Source: Aggregatilineales bacterium (GTDB lineage: Bacteria; Chloroflexota; Anaerolineae; Aggregatilineales; J027). Taken from it: a stretch of 64,000 nucleotides of DNA. The notes beneath the pieces were generated by a model, which saw only the letters and a list, made by a program, of their open reading frames with translations, did no database searches and had not been told where the DNA came from. The stretch is from the NCBI GenBank assembly GCA_965215855.1, contig CBDCER010000001.1, forward strand, positions 133,564 to 197,563. The letters are read 5' to 3'. Positions 10,994 through 19,508 of this stretch are shown here, piece after piece (position 1 is the stretch's first letter; the number at the start of each line of letters is the position of its first letter). Both the position numbers and the translations under genes were made by a program.

Positions 10994-12151
10994 ATGCGAG
11001 ACGTATGCATTATTGGTATCGGGCAAACGCCCATCGGCGAACTGTGGGATATGAGTCTCAAAGATCTGGCATTTCAAGCATTGCAGGCAGCTTTTGAAGA
11101 TGCAGGCGTGAATGATCCCCAAGCACTGTATGTAGGCAACATGTTAGCGCCGCGCCTCAGTCGCCAGGCCCATTTGGGCGCGATGGTTGCGGACTATGTC
11201 GGGCTTGTTGGGGCGGAAGCAGTCACCATTGAGGCGGCTTGTGCGTCGGGCGGGGCGGCATTTCGGGCGGGCTATATGGCGGTTGCCAGCGGCGCGGTTG
11301 ATGTGGTGGCTGTGTTGGGCGTGGAAAAGATGACAGACGGCATTGGGGCCGAAATCCCAACGGCGCTGGCAGCGGCGGCGGATGCGGAATATGAGGGTAT
11401 TCATGGGGCGACGTTCGTGGCGCTCAATGCCCTGGTGATGCAGCGTTATATGCACCAGTACAATGTGATGCACGATGCCTTTGCGCCTTTCAGCATCAAT
11501 GCCCATCAAAATGCCATGAACAATCCCAATGCGATGTATCATCGTGAATTGACGCTAGCAACGTATCAAAAAGCCCCCATCATTGCGGCTCCGATTAATC
11601 TATATGACAGCTCGCCGATTTGTGATGGGGCGGCGGCGGCCATTCTAGTTCCGCTGGAAATGGCGAAAATGATGCCGAATGTACAACCCATTCGTGTACT
11701 CGCCAGCGCCAGTGCCACCGATTTCATGAGCCTACATAGTCGCCAGGAGATCACCAAACTGACTGCCGGGCATATCAGTGCAGGTCGGGCATATGAAATG
11801 GCTGGTCTCAAGCCAGATGATATTGATGTTTTCGAGGCGCATGATGCGTTTTCGATCATGGCGGCACTCAGTTTGGAGGCAGCGGGGTTTGCTCAATCTG
11901 GCACTGCGACTCAACTGGCCCGTGATGGTGAGCTGGGAATTGGTGGGCAGTTGCCAATCAGTACGATGGGTGGTTTGAAGGCACGCGGCCATCCGGTTGG
12001 CGCGACGGGTATGTATGAAATCCTCGATCTGGTGACACAGTTACGTGGCGAGGCTGGTACGAATCAGGTGAAAAACGCTAGTATTGGCATGACACAGAAT
12101 ATCGGTGGCACAGGCGCGACCATTGTCACCCACATCTTGAGCAACAATTGA
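10994..12151 (+). CDS. Thiolase (archaeal/SCP-x-like acetyl-CoA acyltransferase)
   Basis: EAACASGG, EAHDAF, GGLKARGHPVGATG, NIGG. Confidence 0.88.
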   Translation: MRDVCIIGIGQTPIGELWDMSLKDLAFQALQAAFEDAGVNDPQALYVGNMLAPRLSRQAHLGAMVADYVGLVGAEAVTIEAACASGGAAFRAGYMAVASGAVDVVAVLGVEKMTDGIGAEIPTALAAAADAEYEGIHGATFVALNALVMQRYMHQYNVMHDAFAPFSINAHQNAMNNPNAMYHRELTLATYQKAPIIAAPINLYDSSPICDGAAAAILVPLEMAKMMPNVQPIRVLASASATDFMSLHSRQEITKLTAGHISAGRAYEMAGLKPDDIDVFEAHDAFSIMAALSLEAAGFAQSGTATQLARDGELGIGGQLPISTMGGLKARGHPVGATGMYEILDLVTQLRGEAGTNQVKNASIGMTQNIGGTGATIVTHILSNN

Positions 12152-12181
12152 TGACTTCCGGTGAGAGCGGGCAGCGTGTCG

Positions 12182-14029
12182 TTAACAGCCGCCAGCACAG
12201 GCCGCATCGTAGGCGGCTTCGATGATTGCCAGGAACCAACCTGTTGCCAGCAATAAGCCAAACCGCATGTGGAGTTGGGCACTACGCCGCAGCACCGGAT
12301 TGAGGGCCGCTGGCTCGGTATTGGCTGCGACGCGATAGACCAATGACAGGGCAGCAGGCAGACTGAATAATGTGATGAGCGTATAGGTTGGCGCTATGCC
12401 GAAGATGACCAGCGCAAGTTGTGATAGATAGGTTGCCCCAATCAGAACATAATACTCGATATTGGCATAGCGGCGCCCGACGAGCGTTGCCAATGTGCGC
12501 TTGCCCACCAACCGGTCATGTTCCAGGTCGCGTAGATTGTTGGCGTGGAGAATGGCGGCTACCAAAAACGCAATCGGCAACGAAGCTAGCAATGGTTCCG
12601 CTGTGACCAGTTTTACCTGAATGAAATAAGCGCCAATGATGATGACTGGCCCCATGAATATGCCCACCGTCAGCTCACCTAGGCCAATATAGGCCAATGC
12701 GACTGGCCCCGCAGTGTAGAAAAATCCAGCCAGTAGGCTGAAAATTCCCAGAAATAGAATGAATGGCCCGGCCACACTCACCAGATAGAGACCAATGCCC
12801 GAACCTAATACAAAACACAAGATACCGTAGACCAATATGGCCCTGGGTGACATTTCGCCGCGCTGGATGACGCCGCCGATACCTAGCGATTGCTCATTGT
12901 CGGCTCCCTTTACATGGTCATAGTAATCATTGACGAGATTGGTTCCGGCTTGAAATGCAACAGAGCCAACCAGTGCCAGCCCGAAGATGAACCAGTTGAA
13001 TGTCCAGTCGTAGGCATCGGTGGCAATTTTGGGCTTGAGCGAAAGGATGGTCGGCGCTGAATTGAAAATCGTCATGCGGTGGTAGCCTGCGATGGTACTG
13101 CCGACCAGCAGGGGAATCCAGGTGGCGGTGAAACTCCAGGGACGGGTGGCGATCCAATAGGCTGAAATGCGTTGTTGGAGCGAGGTTGGAGATTGGCGGC
13201 GGGTTTCGGGTTGCCAGGGAACCAGTAAACGGCTAATGCGCGATAGGATGGTGGCGAAGATGTAGCCCATGATTCCGGCGGTAACCAGGAAAGCAAAATA
13301 GAGTTCGACACGTACCAATTCTTTGGCCCGCCAAATCTGGAAGCCGATACCGGAGTCGTCGCTGAGGAAAAACTCTGCGCCGACGATGACCACCAGCGCG
13401 AACCCTAATCCTAGTTGCAGGCTACTGACGATGCCGGGCATACTGGCGGGTAGCGTCACGCTGAAAAAGACCTGAACCGGATTCGCGCCGAAACTTCGGG
13501 CTACTTCGCGGTGTTTGGGGTCGACCTGCGACATGCTCTTGACAACACTCAGCAGCACCAGAAAAAACACACTGAAGGCTACTAAACGCACCAACCCTTT
13601 TTCACTGAGACCATACAGCGAGATAACCAGCGGCAGGAAGGCGATTTTGGGCGTGGCGTATAATGCTTCGGCTAGTGGTTGGAAGAAGGCATAGATTTTG
13701 CGACTGGAACCCATTAATAGGCCGAGGATGATGCCGGGGATGGCCCCTAATGCAAAGCCGTAGATGACTCGATAGCTAGTAGCCCAGATATTGGTGACCA
13801 GTACATCATCTTGATAAAGTGATTTGAGTTCGTCCCAGATGCGAGTGGGGCGCTCGAAGAAACGCGGATCGAGGACAGGATCGAAGCTAAACAATACCCA
13901 ACTTCCCAAGCGCACATCGCCACGCACTAACGCTTCCCAGACGACTAAGAGCAGGATCGGAGCCAGGAGCGCAATGCTGATCTGTAGCAGCCGGGCCAGT
14001 GTGCGGCGGATTTCTGTTTGGATCATCAT
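12182..14029 (-). CDS. menA: Fusion: NitT/TauT-type ABC permease + MenA-type (DHNA polyprenyltransferase, UbiA family) domain
   Basis: N-terminal ~275 aa permease (PKIAFLPL; EAA loop REVARSFGA...VTLPASMP; VIVGAEF). C-terminal ~325 aa MenA (WIATRPWSF, NLVNDYYDHVKGAD, FYTAGP...YIGLGE, ANNLRDLEHD...GKRTLA). One uninterrupted ORF. Confidence 0.9.
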   Translation of the reverse strand: MMIQTEIRRTLARLLQISIALLAPILLLVVWEALVRGDVRLGSWVLFSFDPVLDPRFFERPTRIWDELKSLYQDDVLVTNIWATSYRVIYGFALGAIPGIILGLLMGSSRKIYAFFQPLAEALYATPKIAFLPLVISLYGLSEKGLVRLVAFSVFFLVLLSVVKSMSQVDPKHREVARSFGANPVQVFFSVTLPASMPGIVSSLQLGLGFALVVIVGAEFFLSDDSGIGFQIWRAKELVRVELYFAFLVTAGIMGYIFATILSRISRLLVPWQPETRRQSPTSLQQRISAYWIATRPWSFTATWIPLLVGSTIAGYHRMTIFNSAPTILSLKPKIATDAYDWTFNWFIFGLALVGSVAFQAGTNLVNDYYDHVKGADNEQSLGIGGVIQRGEMSPRAILVYGILCFVLGSGIGLYLVSVAGPFILFLGIFSLLAGFFYTAGPVALAYIGLGELTVGIFMGPVIIIGAYFIQVKLVTAEPLLASLPIAFLVAAILHANNLRDLEHDRLVGKRTLATLVGRRYANIEYYVLIGATYLSQLALVIFGIAPTYTLITLFSLPAALSLVYRVAANTEPAALNPVLRRSAQLHMRFGLLLATGWFLAIIEAAYDAACAGGC

Positions 14030-14808
14030 GATACCTCCGCTGCTAGATCAACTTGCTGGCGGAGCGTGGCCCAGATTTGGGCATAACGTTCGCCGAAAGT
14101 GGGATTGGCGCGGAGGGCCATGACATCACGAGGGCGTGGGAAATCAACCCTGTACTCTGCTAGGATGTGCCCTGGACGTGCTGACATCACCACGATGCGA
14201 TCTGCTAACGTCAGGGCTTCTTCGATGCTATGCGTGACGAACAACACCGTCATATCGCTGCTTTTCCAGAGATTGAGCAGGGTTTCTTGCAGTACTAAGC
14301 GCGTTTGGGCGTCGAGTGCGCCGAAGGGTTCATCCATGAGTAACACTTCGGGGTTGTGGGCAAAGGCGCGAGCCAACCCGACCCGCTGTTGCATCCCGCC
14401 GGAGAGTTGAGCTGGGAATGATTCGGTGAAACGCGCCAGACCAATGCGGTTGATCCATTGTTGGGCGGAGGCATAGCGTTGTTTGCCGCCAATACCCTGC
14501 ATTCGCATTCCGAAGCAGATATTTTCCAGCACTGTCATCCAGGGGAACAGGCCAGCATCCTGGAAGACCATCGCGCAGGCTGGGCGATTAGTGTCGGTTG
14601 GAACGATGTGCGCTTTGCCAGTCGTGGGGCGCTCTAGACCAGTCAGCACGCGCAGTAAGGTGGTTTTACCACAACCGCTGGGGCCGACGACACATACAAA
14701 TTTGCCGTCCTCAACCGTGAGCGACAGATTGTGTAGTGCGGTAATCGCGCCAGTGCCGACCGTGCCAGGATATTCAATCGTCAAGTTTTCAGCATGGATT
14801 TTGGGCAT
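14026..14808 (-). CDS. ABC transporter ATP-binding protein (NitT/TauT/SsuB type)
   Basis: GPSGCGKT, LSGGMQQR, LMDEPFGALD, VTHSIEEA; 4-bp overlap with the downstream fusion gene. Confidence 0.95.
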   Translation of the reverse strand: MPKIHAENLTIEYPGTVGTGAITALHNLSLTVEDGKFVCVVGPSGCGKTTLLRVLTGLERPTTGKAHIVPTDTNRPACAMVFQDAGLFPWMTVLENICFGMRMQGIGGKQRYASAQQWINRIGLARFTESFPAQLSGGMQQRVGLARAFAHNPEVLLMDEPFGALDAQTRLVLQETLLNLWKSSDMTVLFVTHSIEEALTLADRIVVMSARPGHILAEYRVDFPRPRDVMALRANPTFGERYAQIWATLRQQVDLAAEVS

Positions 14809-14811
14809 TGC

Positions 14812-15540
14812 TCAATCGCGCTCGAAGCGTATTCCATAGGGTCGGCTACGATAGTTATACATGATGTCAGCGTAAGCATGTGGGTCGTCAAAACCCCGGA
14901 ACGCATCTTTGATTTGCGAGAGTTGGATTATAAAGGTGATGTCGCCGATGGTATAGCGACCATATAGAGACCAACGTTCCATGCGCTCCAGCAAGGTGAA
15001 GTCGCTGGCGAATTCCGGAAAGCTGGCTTGAAGATGACTATAGGCCGCTTCCAGATCATCTACGACGAAGCCGATATGATGGATGCGGCTGGGAATGCCA
15101 TCGGTCAGGGGTTTGCCGGGTTCGGCATCGAACAGAAACAGGGAGGTGTTGCCGGTACTGACGACGGTGATATGTTCGTCATCGCGCATTACATCCATTT
15201 TCAATCCCTGGTGGAAGAAATCGCGGGCTTGCTGACGATCTTGCATTGTCAGTGCCACATGATCGAAACCAACCTGCCGCCAGCCCCGATTGTTGATAGT
15301 CAATGGTGATGATGAAACCAGTAGATTGCAGTGACCGTAGTGTTTATAGATTTCGCCCAAGAACATATCAGGATAGATCAGGTCACCGTTGTCAGTGCGG
15401 GCCGAGACGCGCTTTTTCGCCATGTCTGATGCAGGCAGGAGCGCAGTCATGGCTTCATGGACAATTTGAAGCGGCTCGAATTCGCCTTCGTAAATGTCTT
15501 TGAAATTAACGGTCAGCTTGACCGGAATAGATTGTGTCAT
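14812..15540 (-). CDS. VOC (glyoxalase/dioxygenase superfamily) protein with N-terminal extension
   Basis: FDHVALTMQDRQQARDFF and IHHIGFVVDDLEAA motifs; ATG at 15540 after AGGAGG. Confidence 0.75.
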   Translation of the reverse strand: MTQSIPVKLTVNFKDIYEGEFEPLQIVHEAMTALLPASDMAKKRVSARTDNGDLIYPDMFLGEIYKHYGHCNLLVSSSPLTINNRGWRQVGFDHVALTMQDRQQARDFFHQGLKMDVMRDDEHITVVSTGNTSLFLFDAEPGKPLTDGIPSRIHHIGFVVDDLEAAYSHLQASFPEFASDFTLLERMERWSLYGRYTIGDITFIIQLSQIKDAFRGFDDPHAYADIMYNYRSRPYGIRFERD

Positions 15541-15688
15541 GTAGGCCTCCTGCCTGGTGTTGTTGATTGTTGAATAAATGCTTGAAAGAATGACCTTCTC
15601 TGCAATTTGATGGCACAGATAGACCCCTCGTGCTCGTGATTGTTGCGGGGAGGGGTCTGATTCCATGGTTTAACGAGACTGGTTTGGA

Positions 15689-16825
15689 CTATTCGGAGGA
15701 CACCTCTTCAGTTGCTTCTGGAGAAGGTTCCGTGTCGTCCATTTCATACGGGCCGAGATCGGCGATAATTTCGTCCAGTAAGGAAGTGTCGAGCATGACG
15801 GTGACATCCATCAACGTGTCGTAGCCAAGTGTGTCTTCCCGGGCGAAGAAATAGCCTTGTAAAGTTTCCAAATTATCGACCTGGATTGTGCCGTCTACTG
15901 GGAAATAGGGACGCGATGCCGTCTTGTTGATTTCGGGAGGGACGGAGGTGTAGTCGGTCAGGATTTGTGCGACCTCATCACTAGTCCAGGTTTCATCATC
16001 GGCCAGGAAACGTGCGGCCCGCACATAGGCCCGCACAAACCCGACGGCGGCTTCACGGTTGCTTTCAATGAAGTCGGTACTCATGTAGAGGAAGGTGGCC
16101 TGGAACCCATCAACAAAGTCTTCCGACAAGCGCACAACCAACCCTTCTTGTTCGGCAAACGATACCAATGGTTCACCCAAAATAGCAGCATCAACGCGGT
16201 CGGCGCTTTCGCTGTTCAAGGCGGCTGGTACATCAGGGAAGCTGACGGCGACGATTTCTACCTCGTCGATGCTGACGCCACCTTGCTCAAGTGCCTGAGC
16301 CAGCCAATATTCGGTGGCTGCACCAATAGCATTGATGGCAACTCGTCCGCCTGCCAAATGCGCGACGCTGGTAATTTCGCCGTTTTCAAAGCGTTCGCGG
16401 CTGACGACGAGTGGGCTTGTGACAGGGGGACTTTCACTATGGACACCAGCCACGATACGGAAGCCTGGGTCGCCGTCGATGTCGATGTTGCGGGCGGCAT
16501 AATTAAATAGTCCGGCTCCCGCGCCACCAAATACGACATCTAGATCGCCAGTTGCCAGCGGGGCCAGCGGTTCGGACCCTCCGGCGACACGCTGCACGTC
16601 GATGACGATGTTCTCATCAGCGAAATAGCCTTGGGCATCGGCCACGAATAGCGGGGCAAAAATCATCACAGGTACAGCGCCGACGCGGACGGTAGTGATT
16701 TGCTCTTGCGGTGTGGGGCTTGGTGCGGCCTGCACCGTGATGCGGTTGGTGATGGTGAATAACAGCATGATGGTCACCAATACCAGGACAGTGCGGTGCA
16801 GGGTTGACGGTTTGGTGGGGGACAT
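15689..16825 (-). CDS. ABC transporter substrate-binding protein (SsuA/THI5/NMT1-like)
   Basis: Signal peptide; APLFVADAQGYF, LAGGRVAIN, VDAAILGEP, AVGFVRAY; AAGGAG RBS. Confidence 0.88.
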   Translation of the reverse strand: MSPTKPSTLHRTVLVLVTIMLLFTITNRITVQAAPSPTPQEQITTVRVGAVPVMIFAPLFVADAQGYFADENIVIDVQRVAGGSEPLAPLATGDLDVVFGGAGAGLFNYAARNIDIDGDPGFRIVAGVHSESPPVTSPLVVSRERFENGEITSVAHLAGGRVAINAIGAATEYWLAQALEQGGVSIDEVEIVAVSFPDVPAALNSESADRVDAAILGEPLVSFAEQEGLVVRLSEDFVDGFQATFLYMSTDFIESNREAAVGFVRAYVRAARFLADDETWTSDEVAQILTDYTSVPPEINKTASRPYFPVDGTIQVDNLETLQGYFFAREDTLGYDTLMDVTVMLDTSLLDEIIADLGPYEMDDTEPSPEATEEVSSE

Positions 16826-16929
16826 GGTGTCTCCTTGTGTTCAATTCGTTCAAAAAGTTCTGAAAGAACATTTTACGTGATTTCGCGGCAAAAGGCAACG
16901 GTAGCATGAAATATGCAAAAAAATATTAG

Positions 16930-16952
16930 GGGATAGTCCACCGGGCTATCCC
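16930..16952. repeat. REP-like palindrome, copy A1
   Basis: GGGATAGTCCACCGGGCTATCCC hairpin; 22/23 identical to the reverse complement of 19465-19487. Confidence 0.75.
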
Positions 16953-17053
16953 TAAAACTGCATGATTTGTCTTCGTGACCTCATGATGTTGGCAGCACTG
17001 TTCTCACTACGCCTGCCGCGAGCGTTAACCCTGCCGTTTGTCCAGAATCAGTC

Positions 17054-17923
17054 TTACGCCATCGTTCCATCACTCATACTTCCGCCTGGTTGGGTATAAT
17101 TACTGCCCAGGCTAGAGTATGTGGCAGGTAGACGCAAGAACTTGGAATAGGTTCTGATTGTCCACGAGACAGGCCCTCGGAAAAAATAGCACTCGGGCGC
17201 TGCGATCTTGTCGATGTCTTTTTTGTATTTCTCAGCGGTGCCTTTTGACAGGTGGAATTTCAGTTCGTCACTGTTCTTGAACGTTTCGTGGATAATCAAG
17301 GCATCTTCGCCAATGACCTGGTACACCTCAAACCTGAGCAGCCCCTCCTCAATCGCGTAAGCGTCAGTACCGACACGCTGCCACCAGTAAATGAGATCCT
17401 CGAGATGTGTAGCCTCATCTGGTTTGCATGTCCACTTGGCAGTGACCATGATAGCTGTCTCATAGTCAGGCCGCTTGTAGTCTTCCTTCACGTATCCAAA
17501 GAGAAATTCACCAAACGCGCCTGGTACGTTCTTCGCTAATAACGCTTCCCTGGCCGGTGCAGGAATGCTGTCTCCACGAATGAGGTGAATCTGTGGCTTG
17601 GCGACAGCCGTGAGCGCACCCATGTGCTGCGTGGCAGTTGTCGAAAAATAGTGAACCAGCGCATCGGGATTCTTGAAAACATGATGAACAAGCACAGCGT
17701 CTTCGCCAACCGCGTGGTTGATTTCTGTCGATAGGACCCCAGCATCGACTTTGGCGCCTGCATGGATGTCTTCCCACTCTTTCAGCATTTCTTTCGACTC
17801 GGCGGATTTTCTGAACAGTCCGCCTTTTTTCGTTGGGATCCATTTGCCGGTAACGCTGATCTCCTGACCAATCTTGGATGGTTCGGCGAGGAAGGGCGGC
17901 AGAGGATCTTTGGGCATTGTCAT
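17054..17923 (-). CDS. Hypothetical protein with two ABM-like (dimeric alpha+beta barrel) repeats
   Basis: Internal duplication (GEDAVLVHHVFKN / GEDALIIHETFKN) similar to the neighbouring ABM-like protein (ENAILVHDVFKD). Confidence 0.6.
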   Translation of the reverse strand: MTMPKDPLPPFLAEPSKIGQEISVTGKWIPTKKGGLFRKSAESKEMLKEWEDIHAGAKVDAGVLSTEINHAVGEDAVLVHHVFKNPDALVHYFSTTATQHMGALTAVAKPQIHLIRGDSIPAPAREALLAKNVPGAFGEFLFGYVKEDYKRPDYETAIMVTAKWTCKPDEATHLEDLIYWWQRVGTDAYAIEEGLLRFEVYQVIGEDALIIHETFKNSDELKFHLSKGTAEKYKKDIDKIAAPECYFFRGPVSWTIRTYSKFLRLPATYSSLGSNYTQPGGSMSDGTMA

Positions 17924-18211
17924 TGTTTCTCTCCTATGGGTATTGACTTTCCTGTGATTGCATCTCTGTGATTACAGTGGTCGCTCGTTGACTGACAGTA
18001 CCGATTACGCTCATGCGATAACTTTCAGTGGATCCTCTGAAAGGTGTTTCTGCGTCCAGAATAAGGCTGGAACAGCGAAAGTCCAAATCTGCCCTGTTGC
18101 AAGACAAATATACTCATCAGTCGAAATGTCATCACTATCGCCATGCCTAGGCTGGGTATTTGGCGTTGTCTGGCTTATGTAGCAGGCTTTTTTACTGACA
18201 CTGATAGGTCA

Positions 18212-18586
18212 TTACAGGCTTCGGTCGAACCCAAACGCATGAGTGCTAAATTCGGCGCCCATATTCATCCCTTGCGCGGCCTGCATTAGTTCTTCTGGTA
18301 CATCACCACAGAAGAAGAAAGGACCGGGGACCGCAATTTCGGCTAACTTGGGAAAGTGATGAGCTGCTGTACCGCCCAGATGAACGCCCAAGGCTGCACC
18401 GTCCTTAAATACATCGTGTACGAGTATCGCATTTTCTTCATCTGCAAAGTAGCATTCCATTTTAAGGCTATCCGGTTCATTTTCTTCCATCTCTTCGTAG
18501 ACTTCCTGGTAAATGGCCTTGAGTTCATCCAGTTTTCCAGGCTTGGCTGTCCACTTGTAAAACACTGTAATCTCTTGACTATTCAT
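18212..18586 (-). CDS. ABM / putative quinol monooxygenase-like protein
   Basis: 124 aa; WTAKPGKLDELK...ENEP...LVHDVFKDGAALGVH pattern of the ABM fold. Confidence 0.65.
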   Translation of the reverse strand: MNSQEITVFYKWTAKPGKLDELKAIYQEVYEEMEENEPDSLKMECYFADEENAILVHDVFKDGAALGVHLGGTAAHHFPKLAEIAVPGPFFFCGDVPEELMQAAQGMNMGAEFSTHAFGFDRSL

Positions 18587-18683
18587 TGCAATGGACCTTT
18601 CCTGTTCCACTTTTTATTTCAAGTGCTTCGGTGAATAATGAACTAAGCAGTTCAGCGAGTAATGGTTCAACCATACCAGAATT

Positions 18684-18721
18684 AGTTGAAAAAATCAACT
18701 GTTTGGTTTAAAATATAAACT
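18684..18721. promoter_or_regulatory. Two tandem palindromic operators, probably for the adjacent HxlR-family regulator
   Basis: AGTTGA-AAAAA-TCAACT (18684-18700) and GGTTTA-AAATA-TAAACT (18705-18721) between divergent genes. Confidence 0.6.
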
Positions 18722-18745
18722 AATATCGATTATTGAGGCAACGAC

Positions 18746-19372
18746 GTGAAAACAGATCGCAAGAGTTATGATCAAGTGTGCCCGCTGGCAACAGCCCTGG
18801 ACTTCATTGGTGATCGTTGGACGATCCTCATTCTCCGCGAACTCCTGGGTGGTTCTGCGCGTTTCAATGAACTCCGTGACGGACTTCCGGGCATCGCCAG
18901 CAATCTACTGACAGAACGCCTTCGCCGTTTGGAAGAGGATGGACTTGTTCGGCAGAGGAAAGCTCACAATACAATAGTGTATGCACTGACCGAGCAGGGT
19001 GCAGATAGTAGAGCTGCCCTGGAAGAACTCGGTATGTGGGGTGCGAGACTTACGCGAGTGACTCCCGCTGTGCATGGGAGGAGCATTCGCGCTATTGCGA
19101 TGGCATTGCAGTCTGTGTTGGTCCGGGCCAGCGACTTGCCCGCAGAGCGGTTGGTGATCGAACTTGAAGTGGACGGCGAGTATGTCGAAATCATACTTAG
19201 CCAGAGGCCAACAGTCATCGCCCGAATCTCTACTCAAGCAGATGCACGAGTGGAGATCTCAACCGATGGTATTTCAGCCGTTCTAATGGGGCAGTCCTTC
19301 GACACCTCGCCATTTACTCATATCTCTGGCAACAAAACTGCTATACAGCATCTGATTTCAGCACTCAGTTAG
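18746..19372 (+). CDS. HxlR/DUF24 winged-helix transcriptional regulator with SCP2-like C-terminus
   Basis: YDQVCPLATALDFIGDRWTILILREL...RFNEL...GIASNLLTERLRRLEEDGL; GTG start after GAGG. Confidence 0.88.
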   Translation: MKTDRKSYDQVCPLATALDFIGDRWTILILRELLGGSARFNELRDGLPGIASNLLTERLRRLEEDGLVRQRKAHNTIVYALTEQGADSRAALEELGMWGARLTRVTPAVHGRSIRAIAMALQSVLVRASDLPAERLVIELEVDGEYVEIILSQRPTVIARISTQADARVEISTDGISAVLMGQSFDTSPFTHISGNKTAIQHLISALS

Positions 19373-19464
19373 GACGAACGTGGCTTGAATCGCCACTTGT
19401 TGTGACGAGCTATGGCAATCTAAGCGATATTGAGCCAACTTGATTGGGGATGCGCAACAGAACA

Positions 19465-19487
19465 GGGATAGCCCAGTGGACTATCCC
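19465..19487. repeat. REP-like palindrome, copy A2 (possible bidirectional terminator)
   Basis: GGGATAGCCCAGTGGACTATCCC between convergent genes. Confidence 0.75.
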
Positions 19488-19508
19488 TAGAACCGCCAAG
19501 GGATGCGG

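Follow-up and report, generated by a model that had tools for sequence, protein, structure and literature searches.

What would an ATP-binding cassette (ABC) importer carry if its permease were joined to a quinone prenyltransferase? This question is raised by positions 12182-16825 of a 64,000-nucleotide window (the whole stretch of DNA analyzed here) from the genome of an Aggregatilineales bacterium, a member of the phylum Chloroflexota. The locus encodes a substrate-binding protein, a VOC protein, an ABC ATPase and a single polypeptide composed of an ABC permease and a MenA-type prenyltransferase. We found that this permease::MenA fusion is a conserved architecture in Chloroflexota, and that nearly all genomes carrying it lack the genes of the known pathways to the quinone head group. 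We put at about even the chance that the importer takes up 1,4-dihydroxy-2-naphthoate (DHNA) or a close naphthoquinone head-group precursor, which would be trapped by prenylation for menaquinone. The combination is new, although both kinds of protein are already known.

The four open reading frames (ORFs) of the locus are co-oriented on the minus strand, and all coordinates are window positions. The ORF list agrees with the initial annotation, made from the letters alone, on the tight spacing of the last three genes: a 3-bp gap separates the VOC ORF from the ATPase ORF, and the ATPase and fusion ORFs overlap by 4 bp. An AAGGAG ribosome-binding site is located directly 5' of the ATG at 16825, which starts the binding-protein gene. 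The public runs listed for the locus include no RNA run. The features are arranged as follows.

16870-16898, minus strand: promoter-like site upstream of the binding-protein gene, matching 9 of 12 positions in a consensus scan; weak, as such sites are no more numerous in the region than in shuffles

15689-16825, minus strand: exported substrate-binding protein with an NMT1/SsuA/THI5 fold, 378 amino acids (aa) (Pfam NMT1_2, 1.6e-20; NMT1, 2.3e-16)

14812-15666, minus strand: cytoplasmic VOC (glyoxalase/dioxygenase-fold) protein, 284 aa as called (one weak Pfam Glyoxalase domain, 7.2e-08)

14026-14808, minus strand: ABC ATPase, 260 aa (Pfam ABC_tran, 1.1e-32)

12182-14029, minus strand: permease::MenA fusion gene, 615 aa plus stop codon (BPD_transp_1 at residues 99-271, UbiA at residues 339-576)

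13223-14029, minus strand: ABC permease domain of the fusion, residues 1-269, with the EAA loop (BPD_transp_1, 8.3e-20)

13142-13222, minus strand: arginine-rich linker, residues 270-296, bounded by the PW closing the permease and the RPWS opening MenA (from the alignment of 22 proteins)

12185-13141, minus strand: MenA-type domain of the UbiA superfamily, residues 297-615, with both Asp-rich motifs (UbiA, 2.2e-36)

Could the 615-aa ORF simply be two genes joined by an assembly or frameshift artefact? Logan contigs from two samples of one study (runs X1 and X2) cover the entire stretch 12182-16825 with 0 differences, although these contigs may themselves be the source of the assembly, and contigs of a further run (X4) bridge the permease-MenA junction. 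In the low-depth run X3, the contigs break at 13205, inside the linker, as might be expected of an artificial junction. Of 556 relatives detected across 185,579 species genomes, the best 80 were analyzed, and 66 of these have adjacent permease and MenA parts. In 63 of the 66 loci, all from other assemblies, the two parts share one uninterrupted frame; the other three (L085, L087 and L090) have a single in-frame stop codon (TGA, TGA and TAG, respectively) exactly at the junction, which would likewise suit two separate genes. Taken with the junction residues that are invariant among the aligned fusions, this leaves the artefact explanation scarcely credible. The three interrupted loci are of the Thermomicrobiales type, to which the fused locus L086 is related, and they may represent separate genes or read-through.

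The initial annotation had suggested looking for further proteins with both domains and for unfused menA genes beside such ABC genes. The latter exist in the three interrupted loci, and the former are common. A search of 5.8 billion proteins returned 413 matches, and all 120 matches listed contain both BPD_transp_1 and UbiA, as does an Atlas cluster of 70 members; the database name of these proteins is simply DHNA octaprenyltransferase. Alignment of 22 fusion proteins (49-76% identity) revealed that the EAA-loop positions E175, A177, G181, A182, P194 and P198 are conserved. The Asp-rich motifs correspond to NDYYD (residues 367-371) and NNLRD (residues 497-501), the latter accompanied by D505 and K510-R511-T512, and residues N367, D371, N497, N498, R500, D501 and D505 are invariant. 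At the junction, P271, W272, W292, R296 and S299 are invariant, and P297 and W298 nearly so. Both Pfam and the alignment therefore agree with the earlier description of a full permease with an EAA loop followed by a MenA domain with both Asp-rich motifs. Carriers of the fusion belong to Anaerolineales, Aggregatilineales, Thermoflexales, Roseilinea, Caldilineaceae/Litorilinea, Ardenticatenales, Chloroflexaceae, Roseiflexaceae and Thermomicrobiales.

The C-terminal domain is predicted to be a MenA-type prenyltransferase, with DHNA as its predicted acceptor. It scores 141.3 against the NCBIfam model TIGR00751 (menA, cut-off 102.15) and falls under the cut-offs of two narrower MenA models (NF004749, 231.4 vs 277; NF004751, 200.6 vs 264). 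A tree built from 82 MenA domains (quick search, LG+G4) groups 55 fused with 3 unfused rows in the main fused clade (SH-aLRT of 94); four Thermomicrobiales-type genes branch apart from it, and its sister clade comprises unfused genes of Tepidiformaceae/Dehalococcoidia. Among the three unfused rows, L084 is truncated by the end of its contig and retains part of a permease, L089 is situated beside menC, menE, menB, menH, menD, menF and a regulator gene, and L088 has menG in its vicinity. As for the sister clade, 2 of the 4 genomes tested have menB, and one further match, which is truncated, falls narrowly short of the cut-off. On account of the men cluster around L089, the menG near L088 and the menB of the sister clade, the fused domain would thus descend from an ordinary DHNA-using MenA.

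In the predicted model of the fusion, the permease domain has six long helices, the last of which ends at residue 269. It is followed by a coil (residues 270-282) and a short helix (residues 283-294), and the permease end and MenA start are located on the same Arg-rich side, with the first Asp-rich motif at the end of the second MenA helix. Type I permeases have a cytoplasmic C-terminus and UbiA enzymes a cytoplasmic active site; given this topology, both the linker and the active site are predicted to face the cytoplasm. The first two MenA helices are connected by a loop of ~30 residues (fusion residues 316-345, about 12995-13084), which only the closest relatives of the window share and which is modelled with pLDDT <50.

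The same coupling of transport and enzyme might serve another aromatic acceptor, such as 1,4-dihydroxy-6-naphthoate, menadione/1,4-naphthoquinone, an amino-naphthoquinone, hydroxybenzoate or a plant or microbial phenolic, and yield a second, distinct prenylated membrane compound or a detoxified one instead of the main menaquinone pool. In a set of 50 other fusion-bearing genomes (hereafter the carriers), a standalone MenA accompanies the fusion in 33. This enzyme is often encoded next to MenG and scores 200-255 bits on the menA model compared to 120-196 bits for the fused domains; with a separate, higher-scoring enzyme at hand, the fused paralogue may have diverged in substrate. Its failure on the narrower MenA models points in the same direction, as does the VOC protein that accompanies the system in 7 of 66 loci. 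So does its best PDB relative, UBIAD1 (8djk, 3.4e-28), an enzyme that prenylates menadione rather than DHNA. However, the fused enzyme is the only MenA in 17 of the 50 carriers and must serve the main quinone there, and the unfused clade member L089 belongs to a classical DHNA-producing men cluster. Moreover, the standalone MenA of the window's genome falls under both narrower models too (NF004749, 212.6; NF004751, 225.1 vs 264), which makes this a trait of the lineage and not of the fusion. We regard another acceptor as unlikely, if worth keeping in mind, and DHNA or a close relative of it as the better candidate.

The remainder of the locus is predicted to be a type I binding-protein-dependent ABC importer. 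The binding protein has a hydrophobic N-terminal anchor or signal, and 35 of 47 orthologues have a hydrophobic N-terminus, mostly followed by a cysteine as in lipoproteins. Its AlphaFold model adopts a periplasmic-binding-protein fold (pLDDT 87.8) with residues 1-39 disordered, which include the hydrophobic segment. An exported binding protein indicates an importer of something external, not a disguised cytoplasmic enzyme. The ATPase has Walker A, signature, Walker B and H-loop motifs in its translation, and the permease domain, with its EAA loop, is related in sequence to CmpB (4.1e-19) and NrtB (8e-18) in the PDB.

Comparison with curated families places none of the three ABC parts within a known transporter. 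The binding protein scores 80.9 on TIGR01728 of the SsuA family (cut-off 163.5), and the permease 82.4 on SsuC (cut-off 347) and 81.5 on TauC (cut-off 342). The best NCBIfam families of the ATPase are taurine, SaoA and nitrate, all under cut-off (taurine ATPase, 220.7 vs 357). PDB sequence and fold searches showed that the binding protein shares 14-21% identity with any solved relative and matches the folds of SsuA, TauA, NrtA, CmpA and ThiY; these searches found no close ligand-bound relative. The fold family also includes binders for cofactor salvage, namely those of thiamin, formylaminopyrimidine and pyrroloquinoline quinone (PQQ). Assignment of a ligand by homology was rejected, since only distant relatives with many different ligands are available.

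These likenesses would suit an ABC module that imports an unrelated solute (a sulfonate, taurine, nitrate, thiamin pyrimidine or riboflavin), with the fusion merely tolerated or serving as a scaffold for membrane insertion or assembly. All three ABC parts indeed score best on the taurine, sulfonate, nitrate and Sao families, and the fold matches are to binding proteins of the same kind; but the sulfonate, taurine, nitrate and Sao models all stay far under their NCBIfam cut-offs, and the neighborhood has no conserved sulfonate monooxygenase or other gene that would consume the solute. In window positions 11500-19500, an Rfam search (E up to 1) revealed no thiamin pyrophosphate (TPP), flavin mononucleotide (FMN) or other riboswitch, save a chance snoRNA match, and upstream regions in 7 related loci have no Rfam match at gathering score, which speaks against a thiamin-pyrimidine or riboflavin system. 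A TPP or FMN riboswitch upstream is usual for ThiXYZ or RibXY importers. In addition, deep lineages of Chloroflexota retain the fusion with its junction motifs or, in one clade, the mere adjacency of the two genes, orphan pairs of binding protein and ATPase depend on the fused permease, and the presence of the fusion tracks the loss of menB and menD. An unrelated solute is in our view distinctly improbable.

Which genes belong to this putative quinone-precursor importer is seen from its gene neighborhoods. In 46 of 66 loci, the gene immediately upstream of the fusion encodes an ATPase orthologue, and 43 of 66 have both binding-protein and ATPase orthologues adjacent. Neither of them is near the fusion in 20 loci, 8 of which end at a contig edge; the fusion of the remaining 12 is surrounded by housekeeping genes (7 of these loci were scanned with Pfam). 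Binding-protein orthologues were found elsewhere in 4 of 5 lone-fusion genomes tested (39-47% identity), and in 3 of these 4 the distant gene is directly followed by an ATPase orthologue, with no permease match in the flank examined. Such an unlinked pair together with a lone fused permease looks like one transporter split over two sites. The conserved core, linked as an operon or regulon, consists of the binding protein, the ATPase and the fusion; an all-against-all comparison of 1341 flanking ORFs revealed no other neighbor conserved across clades, only clade-specific synteny. One genome with a lone fused permease, G257, has tandem binding-protein paralogues (L108/L112, contig C2, 28006-30020) that are 47% and 40% identical to that of the window.

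The VOC protein, which the initial annotation had counted as part of the system, turned out to be accessory: of the 66 loci, just 7 have an orthologue of it, in each case flanked by the genes for the binding protein and the ATPase. Because these orthologues align from residue 43 onwards only, its true start is probably the ATG at 15540, giving 242 aa. It has no PDB sequence match, and its nearest Atlas cluster is a 69-member VOC cluster, commonest in Chloroflexota. The VOC fold is common among enzymes acting on aromatic rings.

Does the host need an imported head group? The window's genome (G000; 93% complete, 3 contigs) contains six genes of the UbiA family, including the fusion, a standalone MenA (TIGR00751, 151.8 vs 102.15) and a heme O synthase, as well as MenG (222 vs cut-off 158) and two NuoH genes of complex I. 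Neither menB (134 vs 342.7), menD (70 vs 244) nor isochorismate synthase (181 vs 225) reaches its cut-off in this genome, and no match for PF02621 (MqnA/D) or MqnC was found in it. The standalone MenA gene (L003:1429-2340; contig C3, about 1015230-1016141) overlaps its upstream gene (L003:41-1432), which encodes a CheR-like methyltransferase with TPR repeats, by 4 bp; this overlap suggests that the two are co-translated. A third, distant MenA-like UbiA protein is encoded on contig C3 (L006:1420-2460; NF004749, 60.6 bits), and L005 holds one further UbiA protein.

The same gap was found in the carriers. Among these 50 genomes, menB is above cut-off in 2 and menD in the same 2, PF02621 (MqnA/D-like) is present in 6 with one match each, and 42 lack both menB and PF02621. 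MenG, used as a recovery control, was found in 43 of the 50, so incomplete bins cannot account for the gap. As a baseline, we took an even phylum sample of 251 genomes, of which 123 have MenA, including 121 non-carriers, and menB is present in 94 of these 121. Genomes flagged as unpublished were counted (G262 in the 50; G227, G038 and G145 in the phylum sample), and their removal shifts the counts by at most 3. Besides the window's genome, the only carrier in the phylum sample is G247, which is also the sole genome without menB in its family f18 (15 of 16 with menB). Likewise, within genus g147, G311 has menB and no fusion, and G316 has the fusion and no menB.

In a set of 31 close relatives, 7 have the fusion and 19 have a standalone MenA only; menB occurs in 0 of the 7 and in 7 of the 19, and PF02621 in 0 of the 31. 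Of 15 Chloroflexi proteomes, 7 contain MenB and 1 MqnA, as given in the accessible part of a published table (PMC3914697).

Taken together, these data suggest the following mechanism. The exported, membrane-anchored binding protein would capture a small soluble aromatic compound, likeliest DHNA or a very close naphthoquinone head-group precursor, as suggested by the retention of MenG and by the link of the enzyme clade to DHNA. The ATPase dimer would drive the compound through the permease dimer, from which it would emerge at the cytoplasmic face beside the MenA domain. This domain would add a polyprenyl chain, so that demethylmenaquinol stays in the membrane, and MenG would methylate it to menaquinone. 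The system might thereby supply the respiratory quinone in Chloroflexota that lost head-group synthesis. We infer both the ligand and the direction of the coupling between transport and prenylation. A stronger version, in which the cargo is handed straight to the permease-fused enzyme and uptake is completed by prenylation in a trap resembling group translocation, is a tentative proposal that we hold somewhat short of an even chance.

Several observations weigh against this proposal. The standalone MenA of 33 carriers means that the fused enzyme is not the sole menaquinone route there, and the one kept in the window's genome pairs in the tree with that of a menB-bearing relative. Two carriers (G259 and G274) have both menB and menD. 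Completeness figures are lacking for the 50 carriers, and related genomes are not independent, so the Fisher p makes the contrast between carriers and non-carriers look stronger than it is. The relative placement of the two domains of the fusion is not confidently modelled (pTM 0.60). The solved relatives of the binding protein bind sulfonates, taurine, nitrate, bicarbonate, thiamin, pyrimidine or PQQ, and its invariant columns show no Arg or Lys obviously suited to hold a carboxylate. Finally, 12 of the 19 MenA-bearing close relatives without the fusion also lack menB and PF02621, and completeness reaches 95-97% in several of them; carriers are therefore not alone in having the pathway gap. 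These 12 genomes are G307, G309, G314, G315, G318, G320-G322, G327, G328, G332 and G334.

The 12 relatives suggest that the order may have a further means of uptake or a head-group pathway not described so far. Either dependence on an external head group would be widespread, with the fusion as one of several answers, or the lineage would have a head-group pathway of its own that is yet to be described. In the latter case, the fused importer might only recapture leaked DHNA or scavenge it opportunistically, as an accessory economy. Two of the 12 genomes belong to the window's own genus, in which all six genomes searched lack menB, and the complete classical genes of two carriers would fit such an accessory role as well. 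Cultured members of several carrier lineages are reported to contain menaquinone. Against a de novo route, there are no linked candidate pathway genes, only the core families being conserved around the operon across clades, and the marked scarcity of menB and menD among carriers (2 of 50, compared to 94 of 121 for menB in non-carriers) fits a loss of synthesis better than indifference. We consider this route rather unlikely. The salvage reading in the initial annotation is borne out in part. The four computational checks that it proposed all gave the expected outcome: the two-domain architecture is conserved, unfused menA occurs beside such ABC genes, nearly all carriers lack the head-group genes with MenG mostly retained, and contigs of public runs cover the junction. 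The VOC protein falls outside the core, the gap is not confined to carriers, as the 12 of 19 relatives show, and the ligand and its hand-over to the tethered enzyme are predictions.

Comparison with known systems further defines what is unusual about the salvage importer proposed here. Similar to MenA, the C-terminal 320 residues of the fusion pass TIGR00751 and keep both Asp-rich motifs and the RPWS; however, they are attached behind an ABC permease, stay under the cut-offs of the narrower NCBIfam MenA models and form a paralogous clade beside the standalone MenA in 33 of 50 carriers. UBIAD1 of animals, the best solved sequence relative of this domain, builds menaquinone-4 on a head group that its organism does not make, the same logic as proposed here, although it is a eukaryotic endomembrane enzyme without an attached transporter. 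The NitT/TauT importers SsuABC, TauABC, NrtABCD and CmpABCD share the three-part layout, the NMT1/SsuA fold, an NrtB/CmpB-like permease and a TauB-like ATPase, but differ in that here their models score far under cut-off, no sulfonate or nitrate genes are linked, and the permease bears an enzyme domain. Importers for cofactor salvage, such as ThiXYZ (pyrimidine), the thiamin binder 4nmy and PqqT (PQQ), use the same binding-protein fold to scavenge aromatic cofactors or their precursors, and RibXY is another of this kind. Compared to these, the binding protein of the window has only 17-21% identity and no TPP or FMN riboswitch upstream, and theirs have no enzyme fused to the permease.

Full-text literature searches found no paper on a permease-MenA fusion, and the accessible part of the Chloroflexus genome paper (PMC3150298) contains nothing on MenA architecture. 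Gut and lactic acid bacteria have partial men pathways and depend on external DHNA, a shared growth factor for which, as for menaquinone precursors, transporters are not known according to the accessible parts of two studies (PMC5738691, PMC10746273). As described there, these bacteria keep menA and menG, lack the head-group steps and are proposed to rely on the DHNA of their neighbors, much like the carriers; by contrast, no uptake system is known for them in those accounts, whereas here a dedicated fused importer is the candidate. The system is thus probably the first candidate importer for a quinone precursor. If this holds, DHNA or a related precursor of quinones would have its first identified transporter, and the missing uptake step of quinone cross-feeding would be provided. 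It would also represent an ABC-importer design so far not known, with the channel fused to the membrane enzyme that consumes its cargo. In many filamentous Chloroflexota, whether from mats, lakes or activated sludge, respiration would then rely on a quinone ring supplied by neighbors, which would offer a testable explanation for the difficulty of growing many Chloroflexota on their own. The wider puzzle is the large share of MenA-bearing Chloroflexota without either known head-group pathway.

Other genes surround the locus. A thiolase of the archaeal acetoacetyl-CoA thiolase type (NF004720, 466.9 vs 420) is encoded at 10994-12151 on the plus strand, convergent with the fusion gene and with 30 bp between their ends. 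Upstream lie genes of two antibiotic biosynthesis monooxygenase (ABM) domain proteins (17054-17923 and 18212-18610) and a divergent HxlR-type regulator (18746-19372). The ABM-domain genes and the regulator were rejected as parts of the system, with no match of at least 60 bits in any of the 80 related loci. We also considered the other long MenA-like ORFs of the phylum sample as divergent permease fusions and rejected them, as of the five examined, 4 are luciferase-like monooxygenase::UbiA proteins and 1 is UbiA only. These fusions of a luciferase-like monooxygenase to a MenA-like UbiA domain are 657-718 aa long and occur in other Chloroflexota families, at L113:1583-3574, L114:1392-3548, L115:1583-3556 and L116:191-2254 (genomes G040, G016, G128 and G178, respectively).

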